Below, one piece after another: positions 17,343 through 57,018 of a stretch of DNA of 64,000 nt (position 1 is the first letter of the stretch; the number at the start of each line of letters is the position of its first letter). The stretch comes from Escherichia coli (GTDB lineage Bacteria > Pseudomonadota > Gammaproteobacteria > Enterobacterales > Enterobacteriaceae). The stretch is taken from NCBI RefSeq assembly GCF_001677475.2, contig NZ_CP015229.1. The stretch is one strand, 5' to 3'. A program made the translations under genes and the position numbers. The notes beneath the pieces are model-generated. The model was not told the origin of the DNA. It searched no databases and saw nothing but the letters and a program-made list of their open reading frames with translations.

Positions 17343-17459
17343 AAAAAAAAGCGGATCCTGGAGATCCGCAAAAGTTCACGTTGGCTTTAGTTATTCGAGT
17401 TGAGAAACTCTCGAAACGGGCAGTGACTTCAAGGGTTAAAAGAGGTGCCGCTCCGTTTC
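17343..17459 (-). ncRNA. oxyS: OxyS small regulatory RNA (about 109 nt plus U-tail)
   Basis: Minus strand reads GAAACGGAGCGGCACCTCTTTTAACCCTTGAAGTCACTGCCCGTTTCGAG..GCGGATCTCCAGGATCCGC then a U-run; divergent from oxyR. Confidence 0.93.
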
Positions 17460-21393: not shown

Positions 21394-22710
21394 ATGACGG
21401 CGATCGTAAATGAAACCGTGAGTGTGAAGAAAAAGCCCAGCGGTAAGCGGGTGATTTTTGCTTCGGCGTTTGGCAATGCGCTCGAATTTTTTGATTTTGG
21501 CGTTTACAACTTTTTTGTGGTCTATATCAGTACGCTTTTCTTCCCACCCAGCGCTGATCACAATGTCGCGCTGTTACTGGCATTTGCAACATTTGGCGTG
21601 AGTTTTTTTATGCGCCCGCTTGGTGGAATTATCGTCGGGGCCTGGGCCGATCGCTTCGGACGCAAACCCGCGATGGTGTTCACCATTGCCCTGATGAGCC
21701 TCGGTACACTGATGATCGGCATCGCACCGACGTATGAAACGGCGGGCTATTGGGGAACCGCGACGCTGGTGCTGGCGCGTCTAATTCAGGGCGTTGCGGC
21801 AGGAGGCGAAGTCGGTGCCTCAATGTCTTTGTTGGTTGAATCAGCTCCGGCAAATCGTCGCGGCTTTTACAGCAGTTGGTCACTGGCGACTCAAGGCCTG
21901 GCAACAACCTTTGGTGGTGTTGTCGCTTTAGGTTTAAGCGCATGGCTGCCCTTTGCGACAGGTTCAGAAACCGTAATGGCTGAATGGGGCTGGCGTGTGC
22001 CATTTTTTATTGGCGTGTTATTAGCACCTATCGGTTGCTGGTTGCGTCTGAGCCTGGAAAATGACGTACCTGAGCTAGTGCGCAATAAAAAAGCTGCTAC
22101 CAGCGAAAGCGCGTTCTCTCTGCTCCTGCAACATAAGGCGACTATCGTTAACGGCGTTTTACTCGCTATTGGTAGCACGGTCGCAACCTATATCTCCCTC
22201 TTTTATTACGGCACCTGGGCGGCGAAGTATCTGGCGATGCCTCAACATTATTCTCATGCAGCGATGTTACTGGCGGGCGTTATTACGTTTGTGGGTGCGC
22301 TGCTTGTGGGGATGTTGTGCGATTCGGTCGGGCGTAAAAAGCTGATTTTAATCTCCCGTGTGATGGTGCTGATCTGTAGCTGGCCGTCATTCTGGCTGTT
22401 GGTGAATTACCCAAGCCCTGGCATGTTGCTGACGGTGGTTTTCGTGATGGTCAGCTTTACCACGCTTGGCGGTGTGCCGGTAATGTTGCTGATCTCTGAA
22501 CTGTTGCCGAAACGGATTCGGGCATTGGGTTTTGCGCTGGTTTATAGCATTGGTGTGGCAATCTTTGGCGGTTTTGCTCAATATTTCGCTACGCAATCCA
22601 TCGTGTTGCTGGATAGTTTGACAGCTCCGGCGTGGTATTTGGGTGGAGGCACGTTGCTGTCGATGCTGGCGTTGTTGTACGTAAAAGAACCGGCCAAAGA
22701 ATTGCAGTAA
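21394..22710 (+). CDS. Major facilitator superfamily permease, metabolite:H+ symporter (MHS) type
   Basis: 438-aa hydrophobic ORF; [13 protein letters not shown] (GxxxDRxGRK) motif; 42 bp after the amidohydrolase, same strand. Confidence 0.8.
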
Positions 22711-23862: not shown

Positions 23863-24963
23863 TTACTTCGCGGTCAGTAATACGCCGCACTCCATATGGT
23901 GCGTGTAGGGGAACTGATCAAACAGAGCCAGACGTTCGACCTTGTGCGTCTGGCTTAATGTTTCCAGATTCTTGCATAACGTTTCCGGATTGCAGGAGAT
24001 ATACAGAATACGTGGATACGCCTGCACCATTTTCTCGGTTTCACTGTCCAGACCGCTGCGCGGTGGGTCGACAAAAATGGTTTCGCACTGATAACTCTTT
24101 AAGTCGATCCCTTGCAGGCGGTTAAACTCGCGCACACCATTCATCGCCTGAGTAAATTCTTCTGCCGCCATACGAATAATTTGTACGTTATCAATATGGT
24201 TAGCGGCAATGTTGTATTGCGCAGCAGCAACCGACGGCTTAGCGATTTCGGTGGCTAATACCCGATCAAAATTGCGCGCCAGTGCTAATGAAAAGTTACC
24301 GTTGCCGCAGTACAGCTCCAGTAAATCGCCTTTTGAGCCTTTGGTTACGTCCAGCGCCCATTCCAGCATCTGAATATTCATCGCCGCGTTCGGCTGGGTA
24401 AAGCTGTTTTCTACCTGACGGTAGATCATCTCTTTCCCTGCGACCGGCAGACGTTCATCGATGTAATCTTGATCCAGCTCGATTTTGGTTTTCGTTGCCC
24501 GACCAATCAGATGCACATTCAGATTCTGCGCTCGCAGTGCATCGCGCAGGGCTTCCGCTTCCTGACGCCACTCATCATCCAGCTTTTTATGGTACAGCAG
24601 GGAAACCACCGCCTGATTACTCAACGTAGTGAGGTAATCAATCTGGAACAACTTGTGGCGCAGAACGGGATTATTACGCACACCCGCAATCATCGCCGTC
24701 ATCAACTGGTTGATGAGTTCACTGGCAGCGGGGAAGCTATCCACGCGGATGCGGCTTTTGGTTTGTTGATCGAAAATGATGTGGTACAGGTCATCGCCAT
24801 CGTGCCAGATGCGGAACTCCGCGCGCATCCGGTAATGACTGACCGGCGAGCGAAACACTTCCGGAACCAGGTCAGAAAACGGTGCCATCATACTTTGCAA
24901 ACGTACCACTTTTTCGGCTAACTGCGCTTCATACTGTTCTGTTGGAAGGTGTTCGGGGGTCAT
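23863..24963 (-). CDS. trmA: tRNA (uracil54-C5)-methyltransferase
   Basis: 366-aa [26 protein letters not shown].. Confidence 0.95.
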
Positions 24964-25091
24964 GATGTATCCTGAAAAATTAAAGTACGCGGCGATTGTA
25001 GGGATTGCTCATCAGATGTCCAGATCTTGATGAATTCCTATTTGTGAGCTACGTCTGGACAGTAACTTGTTACAACCTGTAGCATCCACTT

Positions 25092-25331
25092 GCCGGTCCT
25101 GTGAGTTAATAGGGAATCCAGTGCGAATCTGGAGCTGACGCGCAGCGGTAAGGAAAGGTGCGATGATCGCGTTATGCGGACACTGCCATTCGGTGGGAAG
25201 TCATCATCTCTTAGTATCTTAGATACCCCTCCAAGCCCGAAGACCTGCCGGCCAACGTCGCATCTGGTTCTCATCATCGCGTAATATTGATGAAACCTGC
25301 GGCATCCTTCTTCTATTGTGGATGCTTTACA
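25092..25331 (+). promoter_or_regulatory. Adenosylcobalamin riboswitch in the btuB 5' leader
   Basis: About 240-nt leader GCCGGTCCTGTGAGTTAATAGGGAATCCAGTGCGAATCTGGAGCTGAC.. with B12-box-like CCCGAAGACCTGCCGGCC. Confidence 0.88.
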
Positions 25332-27176
25332 ATGATTAAAAAAGCTTCGCTGCTGACGGCGTGTTCTGTCACAGCCTTTTCCGCTTGGGCACAGGATACC
25401 AGCCCGGATACTCTCGTTGTTACTGCTAACCGTTTTGAACAGCCGCGCAGCACTGTGCTTGCACCAACCACCGTTGTGACGCGTCAGGATATCGACCGCT
25501 GGCAGTCGACCTCGGTCAATGATGTGCTGCGCCGTCTCCCTGGTGTGGATATCACCCAAAACGGCGGTTCAGGTCAGCTCTCATCTATTTTTATTCGCGG
25601 TACAAATGCCAGTCATGTGTTGGTGTTAATTGATGGCGTCCGCCTGAATCTGGCGGGGGTGAGTGGTTCTGCTGACCTTAGTCAGTTCCCTATTGCGCTT
25701 GTCCAGCGTGTTGAATATATCCGTGGGCCGCGCTCCGCTGTTTATGGTTCAGATGCAATAGGCGGGGTCGTGAATATCATCACGACGCGCGATCACCCCG
25801 GAACGGAAATTTCAGCAGGGTGGGGAAGCAATAGCTATCAGAACTATGATGTCTCTACACAGCAACAACTGGGGGATAAGACACGGGTAACGCTGTTGGG
25901 CGATTATGCCCATACTCATGGTTATGATGTTGTCGCCTATGGTAATACCGGAACGCAAGCGCAGCCAGATAACGATGGTTTTTTAAGTAAAACGCTTTAT
26001 GGCGCGCTGGAGCATAATTTTACTGATGTCTGGAGCGGCTTTGTGCGCGGCTATGGCTATGATAATCGTACTAATTATGACGCATATTATTCTCCCGGCT
26101 CGCCGCTGGTCGATACACGTAAACTCTATAGCCAAAGTTGGGATGCCGGACTGCGCTATAACGGCGAACTGATTAAATCACAACTCATTACCAGCTACAG
26201 CCATAGCAAAGATTACAACTACGATCCGCATTATGGTCGTTATGATTCGTCCGCGACGCTCGATGAGATGAAACAGTACACCGTCCAGTGGGCAAACAAT
26301 GTCATCGTTGGTCACGGTAGTATTGGTGCGGGTGTCGACTGGCAGAAACAGACTACGACGCCGGGTACAGGTTATGTTGAGGATGGATATGATCAACGTA
26401 ATACCGGCATCTATCTGACCGGGCTGCAACAAGTCGGCGATTTTACCTTTGAAGGCGCAGCACGCAGCGACGATAACTCACAGTTTGGTCGTCATGGAAC
26501 CTGGCAAACCAGCGTCGGTTGGGAATTCATCGAAGGTTATCGGTTTATCGCTTCTTATGGTACGTCGTACAAGGCACCTAATCTTGGGCAACTCTACGGC
26601 TTCTACGGTAATCCGGATCTGAACCCTGAGAAAAGCAAACAGTGGGAAGGGGCGTTTGAAGGCTTAACCGCTGGAGTGAACTGGCGTATTTCCGGATACC
26701 GTAACGATGTTAGTGACTTGATCGATTACGATGATCACACCCTCAAATACTACAATGAAGGGAAAGCGCGAATTAAGGGCGTCGAGGCGACCGCCAATTT
26801 TGATACCGGACCGCTGACGCATACGGTGAGTTATGATTATGTCGATGCGCGTAACGCGATTACCGACACGCCGTTGCTACGTCGCGCTAAACAGCAGGTG
26901 AAATATCAGCTCGACTGGCAACTGTATGACTTCGACTGGGGTATTACTTATCAGTATTTAGGCACTCGCTATGATAAGGATTACTCATCTTATCCTTATC
27001 AAACCGTTAAAATGGGCGGTGTGAGCTTGTGGGATCTTGCGGTTGCGTATCCGGTCACCTCTCACCTGACAGTTCGTGGTAAAATAGCCAACCTGTTCGA
27101 CAAAGATTATGAGACAGTCTATGGCTACCAAACTGCAGGACGGGAATACACCTTGTCTGGCAGCTACACCTTCTGA
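25332..27176 (+). CDS. btuB: TonB-dependent outer-membrane vitamin B12 receptor
   Basis: ORF-track 25287..27176 trimmed to Met at 25332 ([35 protein letters not shown]..), 614 aa; TonB box; C-terminal aromatic residue. Confidence 0.95.
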
Positions 27177-28351: not shown

Positions 28352-29893
<1,542 letters not shown>

Positions 29894-29978
29894 CCTTAAA
29901 GAACTGTGCTTTGCAGTGCTCACACAGATTGTCTGATAGAAAGTGAAAAGCAAGGCGTCTTGCGAAGCAGACTGATAC

Positions 29979-30054
29979 GTCCCCTTCGTCTAGAGGCCCA
30001 GGACACCGCCCTTTCACGGCGGTAACAGGGGTTCGAATCCCCTAGGGGACGCCA
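29979..30054 (+). tRNA. gltT: tRNA-Glu (UUC) in the 16S-23S spacer
   Basis: GTCCCCTTCGTCTAGAGGCCCAGGACACCGCCCTTTCACGGCGGTAACAGGGGTTCGAATCCCCTAGGGGACGCCA. Confidence 0.98.
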
Positions 30055-30247
30055 CTTGCTGGTTTGTGAGTGAAAGTCACCTGCCTTAATATCTCAAAAC
30101 TCATCTTCGGGTGACGTTTGAGATATTTGCTCTTTAAAAATCTGGATCAAGCTGAAAATTGAAACACTGAACAACGAAAGTTGTTCGTGAGTCTCTCAAA
30201 TTTTCGCAACACGATGATGAATCGAAAGAAACATCTTCGGGTTGTGA

Positions 30248-33150
<2,903 letters not shown>

Positions 33151-33243
33151 ACAACGCCGAAGCTGTTTTGGCGGATTGAGAGAAGATTTTCAGCCTGATA
33201 CAGATTAAATCAGAACGCAGAAGCGGTCTGATAAAACAGAATT

Positions 33244-33363
33244 TGCCTGGCGGCCGTAGCGCGGTGGTCCCACCTGACCCCATGCCGAACTCAGAAGTGA
33301 AACGCCGTAGCGCCGATGGTAGTGTGGGGTCTCCCCATGCGAGAGTAGGGAACTGCCAGGCAT
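33244..33363 (+). rRNA. rrfB: 5S ribosomal RNA
   Basis: TGCCTGGCGGCCGTAGCGCGGTGGTCCCACCTGACCCCATGCCGAACTCAG..GGAACTGCCAGGCAT; 120 nt. Confidence 0.99.
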
Positions 33364-36994: not shown

Positions 36995-37070
<76 letters not shown>

Positions 37071-37078
37071 TCAAGTCC

Positions 37079-37163
<85 letters not shown>

Positions 37164-37279
37164 ATTTCGGCCACGCGATGGCGTAGCCCGAGACGATAAG
37201 TTCGCTTACCGGCTCGAATAAAGAGAGCTTCTCTCGATATTCAGTGCAGAATGAAAATCAGGTAGCCGAGTTCCAGGAT

Positions 37280-37354
<75 letters not shown>

Positions 37355-37360
37355 AGATGT

Positions 37361-37436
37361 GCTGATATAGCTCAGTTGGTAGAGCGCACCCTTGGTAAGG
37401 GTGAGGTCGGCAGTTCGAATCTGCCTATCAGCACCA
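37361..37436 (+). tRNA. thrT: tRNA-Thr
   Basis: GCTGATATAGCTCAGTTGGTAGAGCGCACCCTTGGTAAGGGTGAGGTCGGCAGTTCGAATCTGCCTATCAGCACCA. Confidence 0.98.
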
Positions 37437-42532: not shown

Positions 42533-42550
42533 GCCAACCCTTCCGGTTGC

Positions 42551-42606
42551 AGCCTGAGAAATCAGGCTGATGGCTGGTGACTTTTTAGTCACCAGCCTTT
42601 TTGCGC
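42551..42606 (+). terminator. rplL-rpoB intercistronic attenuator
   Basis: Two hairpins (cagcctgagaaatcaggctg; ggctggtgactttttagtcaccagcc) followed by TTTTTGCGC. Confidence 0.75.
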
Positions 42607-54891: not shown

Positions 54892-56965
<2,074 letters not shown>

Positions 56966-57018
56966 TTAGCCCCACACACGGGGCGTTGAATGTAAATTAC
57001 GCGTTAACAGCGTAGAAC

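Follow-up and report, generated by a model that had tools for sequence, protein, structure and literature searches.

The leader of btuB in the Escherichia coli DNA analysed here (a window of 64,000 nucleotides from contig NZ_CP015229.1 of assembly GCF_001677475.2) is almost certainly the E. coli btuB adenosylcobalamin riboswitch, a member of the Rfam family RF00174, and as such it had been correctly recognised and was already known. Riboswitch control was first demonstrated on this class-I cobalamin riboswitch, which has been studied for more than 20 years; the K-12 btuB adenosylcobalamin riboswitch, with its 240-nt leader, is reportedly the element described by Nahvi et al. 2002 and by Nou & Kadner 2000. 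The presence of this archetypal riboswitch in the present genome adds nothing new, and the value of the result is that of a correct annotation only, which places btuB here under RNA feedback by coenzyme B12 as in other E. coli. One observation alone is new, the substitution U77C in a peripheral hairpin of the aptamer, which is discussed below together with the readings that compete with the accepted mode of control. All the coordinates refer to the + strand of the window unless stated otherwise.

Identity and class membership of the btuB leader

The whole window was scanned against all 4227 Rfam families, and the E-value given here refers to that search. A match to RF00174 (Cobalamin) was identified at 25077-25266 on the + strand, with a score of 86.0 bits against a curated gathering score of 31.5 (E = 8.3e-20). 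The match spans positions 1-189 of the 189 positions of the model, is not truncated, and is the sole Rfam match in the leader region even at E-values of up to 1. The K-12 leader scores 87.0 bits with the same model, the window leader being 1 bit lower. In the Rfam alignment the conserved GGGAA core, P4, P5 and the B12 box all agree with the consensus. The earlier note had claimed a cobalamin riboswitch in the btuB leader and had named an Rfam scan as the check, a search without a significant match counting against it; the claim is borne out by a score far over the gathering score, by the BtuB receptor encoded immediately downstream, by the near-complete identity to K-12 and by the RefSeq annotation described below.

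The btuB leader occupies 25092-25331 on the + strand, exactly 240 nt, and comprises an aptamer and an expression platform. Its 5' end is the G of GCCGGUCC at 25092, its first bases are GCCGGUCCUGUGAG, and its 3' end is the base preceding the btuB ATG (25332). The 240-nt extent that had been proposed for the riboswitch is therefore that of the leader as a whole, of which the aptamer takes up only about the first 161 nt plus P13, and the remainder is expression platform. Identity to E. coli K-12 MG1655 extends over 239 of the 240 bases, and the same holds for an O157:H7 strain, in which RefSeq carries the annotation 'riboswitch / cobalamin riboswitch' at the homologous coordinates. The primers of a published btuB riboswitch construct of 239 nt (PMC3866643) map exactly to 25092 and to 25301-25330, and therefore the numbering of the btuB literature can be transferred directly, leader +1 corresponding to 25092 in the window. 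The leader length given in the literature is 240 nt (PMC5814972), or '-240' to the AUG (PMC11162775). At least 80% of a 437-nt query spanning the leader was present in 5,420 of the 5,426 complete E. coli genomes searched.

The regulated gene, btuB, is encoded at 25332-27176 (+) and specifies a protein of 614 aa, which matches the equivalog model NF007926 of NCBIfam ('TonB-dependent vitamin B12 receptor BtuB') over its full length with 1110.5 bits against a cut-off of 836. The gene order trmA - btuB - murI - rrnB, with TrmA, BtuB and MurI identified, is that of K-12 and O157; trmA lies upstream of btuB on the opposite strand, murI overlaps the end of btuB and the ribosomal RNA operon comes next. 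A consensus scan detected a putative sigma-70-like promoter of btuB at 25056-25085 (+), consisting of a -35 element TGGACA (25056-25061), an 18-nt spacer and a -10 element TAGCAT (25080-25085), the spacing of which fits a transcription start at 25092. Of 44 related loci scanned, 42 have TAGCAT at the equivalent position.

Several other features were observed in the window. A second riboswitch, a TPP riboswitch (THI element), is matched at 56867-56967 on the - strand (74.8 bits against a gathering score of 54.3), and the OxyS small RNA is matched over its full length at 17350-17459 on the - strand (139.5 bits). A complete rRNA operon occupies 28352-33361 (+), with 16S, a spacer tRNA (29979-30051), a StyR-44 match (30132-30240), 23S and 5S; a cluster of four tRNAs is located at 36995-37433 (+) and a match to the 'Pseudomonas sRNA P26' family at 42537-42598 (+; 74.5 bits). 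An ORF at 21394-22710 (+) encodes an MFS transporter of 438 aa; the O157 gene at this place bears the annotation 'citrate-proton symporter', and the NCBIfam models closest to the ORF (metabolite/H+ symporter, TcuC-like) score under their curated cut-offs.

Architecture of the element and its conservation in relatives

The aptamer proper corresponds to 25092-25252 (+) and is closed by P1; its pairs were transferred from the Rfam alignment to the leader and then checked in 45 leaders. The first 15 nt of the RF00174 match precede the transcription start, and the outer P1 pairs placed there are flagged as non-canonical; since these pairs are non-canonical and lie upstream of the transcript, the real P1 is taken, on the Rfam alignment, to be GCCGGU (25092-25097) paired with GCCGGC (25247-25252). 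P4 (25117-25133) and P5 (25135-25145) lie inside the aptamer, and the peripheral stems P7-P12, in the nomenclature of PMC5359240, form a class I peripheral extension at leader positions 58-141, between P6 and the B12 box. The B12 box, AGCCCGAAGACCUGCCGGCC at 25234-25253, was located with the RF00174 alignment and is nearly invariant in the 45 leaders. The stretch AGCCCGAAGACCUGCCGGC at 25234-25252 aligns to the RF00174 B12-box consensus AGCCaGGAGACCuGCCggc, and the B12-box-like string that had been pointed out earlier, CCCGAAGACCTGCCGGCC, is indeed present at 25236-25253 and aligns to the same part of the model.

The expression platform is organised around two hairpins placed by the MFE fold. 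The first, P13 (25266-25297), carries the loop L13, UCGCGUAAUAU at 25277-25287, in which CGCGU (25278-25282) is complementary to the loop L5, ACGCG at 25138-25142, the 5' partner of a kissing loop reported for btuB (PMC3866643, PMC5359240). P13 is part of a regulatory pseudoknot, and its mutant EP1 abolishes AdoCbl control (PMC11162775). In the second, P14 (25301-25326), the anti-SD strand GGCAUCC (25301-25307) is paired with GGAUGCU (25320-25326). The Shine-Dalgarno sequence GGAUG (25320-25324), located 7 nt before the AUG, lies within the 3' arm of this hairpin, which is near-invariant in the 45 relatives, in agreement with the sequestered ribosome-binding region that had been predicted for the leader. 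A further conserved hairpin, UGACGG / CUGUCA at 25354-25371 (+), was predicted with RNAalifold within the early CDS; 96.6% of its cells are paired in the 45 leaders and two of its pairs show compensatory change, values that are confounded by coding constraint. An attenuator has been mentioned at the start of the btuB CDS (PMC11162775), and the early-CDS hairpin probably corresponds to this 'putative attenuator'.

Folding of the single sequence did not set the MFE of the 269-nt RNA apart from that of its shuffles (z = 0.0), and the MFE fold contains non-native pairings, among them a long-range helix and alternatives in the P2/P3 part. Single-sequence folding being uninformative for the btuB leader, covariation was used instead. 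Loci of btuB were collected from 57 reference genomes and 45 leaders (Escherichia, Salmonella, Citrobacter, Enterobacter, Klebsiella, Serratia, Rouxiella and others) were aligned. The structure tested comprised P1, P3-P6, P8-P11, P13, the L5-L13 kissing loop, P14 and the early-CDS hairpin; P7 was left out because its pairs are ambiguous in the alignment.

Across the 45 leaders, 94.5% of the base-pair cells of the tested structure are paired; sliding the 3' partners by 1-3 columns lowers this to 30-43%. Compensatory changes were observed in 24 pairs, with 103 such cells compared with a shuffle mean of 30, and none of the 500 shuffles reached the observed values. They occur at all six inner pairs of P13 and at four of the five pairs of P8, at two pairs each in P1, P4 and P11, and at one pair in P10. 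The P1 and P3-P6 helices have 92-100% of their cells paired in the relatives; P3, P5 and P6 are paired in 99-100%, with P5 and P6 invariant and a single pair of P3 varying on one side only. In the kissing loop 96% of the cells are paired, and A47-U191 is replaced by U-A in two Rouxiella leaders, the other four pairs being invariant. The arms of P14 are near-invariant (one change in 45 leaders; 99.6% of cells paired). Owing to this lack of variation, covariation speaks neither for nor against P14 and the four invariant kissing-loop pairs.

The same Rfam match was found just upstream of btuB in all ten of the non-Photorhabdus btuB loci scanned. In the Photorhabdus btuB loci (L043, L044, L046, L049, L052 and L053) no Rfam cobalamin match was detected in the 1.2 kb upstream; the Photorhabdus orthologues have about 60% protein identity, and no alignment to the enterobacterial leader is obtained for the DNA upstream of them. 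Among the loci collected, a contig labelled Chryseobacterium sp. (L025, CACSKA010000012.1) carries an enterobacterial btuB (77% BtuB identity) together with an enterobacterial riboswitch leader, and one labelled Caballeronia mineralivorans (L059, NZ_AEJF01000267.1) carries an enterobacterial btuB with 99% identity to the BtuB of the window. Both probably represent contamination or mislabelling in the public assemblies.

A long-range pairing was also considered. GCAGCG at 25142-25147, in the P5/P6 strand, can pair without mismatch with CGCUGC at 25348-25353, in codons 6-8 of btuB; the resulting helix is predicted by both the MFE fold and RNAalifold, and its positions are near-invariant in the 45 leaders. 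As a necessary component of the switch this helix was rejected, since 18 nt of CDS suffice in K-12 (PMC11162775), a length that truncates the helix.

The U77C substitution and the mode of control

The one base at which the leader departs from K-12 is leader +77 (25168, + strand), at the base of the peripheral hairpin P9 (25168-25178), where C is found here and U in K-12. The C77 allele was encountered in none of 5,423 complete E. coli genomes, on no metagenome contig as against 98 with the T (U) allele, and in none of 90 full-length E. coli leaders (88 from metagenome contigs, plus K-12 and O157). The substitution converts a U.G pair to C-G and is predicted to stabilise P9 by about 2 kcal/mol (-3.1 as compared to -1.1 kcal/mol for the hairpin alone), and U77 is an AdoCbl-modulated in-line cleavage site in K-12, 'site 2b' (PMC3866643). 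The rarity of the allele, the ligand-modulated position and the predicted stabilisation all lend some weight to the view that the riboswitch of this strain is impaired or retuned by a private change. However, position 77 carries A, C, G and U across other genera, and a Cedecea leader (L038) has the identical local GAUGAUCGC; the pair 77-87 is unpaired in 34 of the 45 relatives; an existing pair is strengthened and none is broken; and the score with the Rfam model is only 1 bit lower. Moreover, P9 is one of the two peripheral stems peculiar to btuB, which are absent from the crystallised AdoCbl riboswitches (PMC5359240).

Impairment or retuning of the riboswitch by U77C is thus considered distinctly unlikely. 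This private polymorphism is probably neutral, the chance of a quantitative effect being small, and it would leave the riboswitch mechanism intact. It is unlikely, though conceivable, that U77C measurably shifts the ligand affinity or the balance between the ON and OFF states and so represents a natural tuning variant of a lineage unrepresented among the complete E. coli genomes. Its interest is confined to mapping the sequence tolerance of the peripheral stems. The recurrent polymorphisms among the 90 full-length E. coli leaders are located at +99 (L11), +34 (L4) and +162, that is, in loops or just outside P1.

The accepted mode of control would operate as follows. Transcription would start at 25092, and leader positions 1-161 would fold into the aptamer, with P1, the four-way P3-P6 core, the B12 box and the P7-P12 extension. 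On binding of adenosylcobalamin, L5 (ACGCG) would kiss L13 of P13; with P13 docked, the anti-SD GGCAUCC would pair with GGAUGCU in P14 and the Shine-Dalgarno sequence would be buried, so that 30S subunits could not bind and BtuB synthesis would fall. The untranslated mRNA would in turn be exposed to Rho, with termination within about the first 210 nt of btuB. In the absence of ligand, an upstream anti-anti-SD would hold the anti-SD strand and the ribosome-binding site would stay open. The present analysis established that the leader belongs to the family, that it is all but identical to that of K-12 and that its fold is conserved and shows covariation, and ligand binding, SD sequestration and Rho dependence are taken from experiments on K-12 in the literature.

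In K-12, the L5-L13 kissing loop forms on addition of AdoCbl (PMC3866643, PMC5359240) and AdoCbl sequesters the SD in a stem-loop (PMC11162775), an RBS hairpin also described in PMC5814972, where its equilibrium was followed by single-molecule FRET. Mutants of the P13 pseudoknot and of P14 lose or weaken AdoCbl control (PMC11162775). Control of btuB by an RNA element, as the earlier note had concluded, accordingly has a direct experimental basis in AdoCbl binding and translational control demonstrated on the K-12 leader (PMC11162775, PMC3866643, PMC5814972).

The ON state is less accessible to prediction. P14 still forms in equilibrium folds when P13 or the SD pairing is forbidden, the ON state being absent from these folds, and thermodynamic folding predicts a paired SD regardless of ligand. 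Support for the ON state therefore comes from published work and kinetic reasoning and not from these folds. In the literature it is described as an anti-anti-SD paired with the anti-SD strand. GUCGCA at 25257-25262 (+), inside the invariant ACGUCGCA between P1 and P13, is a candidate anti-anti-SD. It can pair with UGCGGC at 25298-25303, overlapping the 5' end of the anti-SD strand, and may in this way withhold the first anti-SD bases. The GUCGCA-UGCGGC helix is predicted when the growing transcript is folded at lengths that stop short of the SD and, in part, in the RNAalifold structure; both strands are invariant in the 45 leaders, for which covariation is uninformative.

Many members of the cobalamin family have terminator-type expression platforms. 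As in many cobalamin riboswitches of Gram-positive bacteria, a genuine aptamer could be envisaged to act chiefly through an intrinsic (Rho-independent) terminator that forms in the leader when the ligand is bound, and one weak terminator-like site was indeed detected at 25348-25361. However, that site is a 5-bp stem inside the CDS, about 0.4 such sites being expected by chance, and it was the only one returned by the scan of 24900-25500; within 25092-25331 there were no terminator-like sites, and no G+C-rich hairpin with a U-run is found between the aptamer and the AUG, where the conserved element beside the start codon is the SD-sequestering hairpin. The 'attenuator' that older literature names early in the CDS could be cited in favour of termination, but 18 nt of CDS are enough for translational control in K-12, and the fall at the mRNA level requires Rho and the CDS region +81 to +210, that is, 210 nt of CDS (PMC11162775). 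A terminator-type mechanism is very unlikely and was rejected, since the scanned stretch from the aptamer to the AUG lacks an intrinsic terminator.

Sequestration of the SD, followed by Rho-dependent termination, is retained as the mode of control, and no observation speaks against the riboswitch reading. The Rho-dependent region of K-12 (CDS +81 to +210, as located in PMC11162775) corresponds to 25412-25541 (+) in the window, a stretch that is likewise C-rich, with 32.3% C and 25.4% G, as compared to 23.6% C and 26.3% G for the whole btuB gene. A second control of btuB, independent of the riboswitch, is exerted by the small RNA OmrA (PMC11162775), the pairing sites of which, at CDS +66 to +79 and +83 to +94, correspond to 25397-25425 (+). 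The OmrA pairing region is identical to that of K-12 except for T in place of C at CDS +87 (window 25418), in the secondary site +83 to +94.

Constraint on the region and comparison with known systems

The trmA-btuB intergenic region differs from that of K-12 at 1 of 368 sites. In the btuB CDS, 75 of the 1845 sites differ; 65 of these are third codon positions, and seven amino acids are changed, so that over 24964-27176 the divergence changes sharply across the btuB start codon. Recombination could have a part in this contrast between the leader and the CDS, because btuB encodes a phage and colicin receptor, but the contrast nonetheless fits strong constraint on the leader. The segment 14000-28300 has a best match of 97.8% over 14.3 kb among the 5,426 complete E. 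coli genomes, the leader being 99.6% identical to K-12, and from these comparisons the window seems to derive from an Escherichia lineage unrepresented among those genomes. For E. coli E69 (L003, CP089930.1), 100% BtuB identity is listed for the best segment and the DNA is 95.5% identical.

That the conservation might stem from the divergent trmA and btuB promoters or from a protein-binding site, the Rfam match being incidental, is suggested by the promoter-like sites for both genes within the intergenic region and by the conservation of all its 368 nt, beyond the aptamer, but it is so improbable as to be refuted for practical purposes by the E-value of 8e-20 against a structure-aware model, by the compensatory changes in 24 pairs, which DNA-level constraints do not produce, by the location of the element downstream of the transcription start and by the direct experiments on the K-12 sequence.

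The conserved btuB leader is best viewed as an RNA element, and its relation to the known systems can be described at three levels. Within RF00174 (class I, AdoCbl-selective; clan CL00101) it shares the B12 box, the GGGAA core, P3-P6 and a peripheral extension of the P7-P11 type; P2 is very short in Escherichia as compared to the family, a known feature of btuB. The crystallised riboswitches of Thermoanaerobacter and Symbiobacterium differ from btuB, which has the extra peripheral stems P9 and P12 (PMC5359240), again known btuB features. All the sequence-testable defining features of a cobalamin riboswitch are present in the window; direct and selective binding of adenosylcobalamin has been shown for the K-12 RNA, from which the C77 allele differs at one base, in literature cited in PMC3866643 and PMC11162775.

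The enterobacterial btuB leaders have in common the core, the kissing-loop sequences, the invariant ACGUCGCA, CUGCGGCAUCC and GGAUGC, the -10 element TAGCAT and the position upstream of btuB, whereas they differ in the peripheral stems (P9, P12 and L11), in the sequence of the P13 stem, where the changes are compensatory, and in the length of the leader. The closest comparison is that with the K-12 btuB leader, which has the same locus and the same length of 240 nt; P1, L5, the B12 box, P13/L13, P14, the SD and the AUG are identical in the two, and the one base that differs is C for U at +77, followed by a downstream CDS that has diverged by 4.1%, mostly at synonymous sites.
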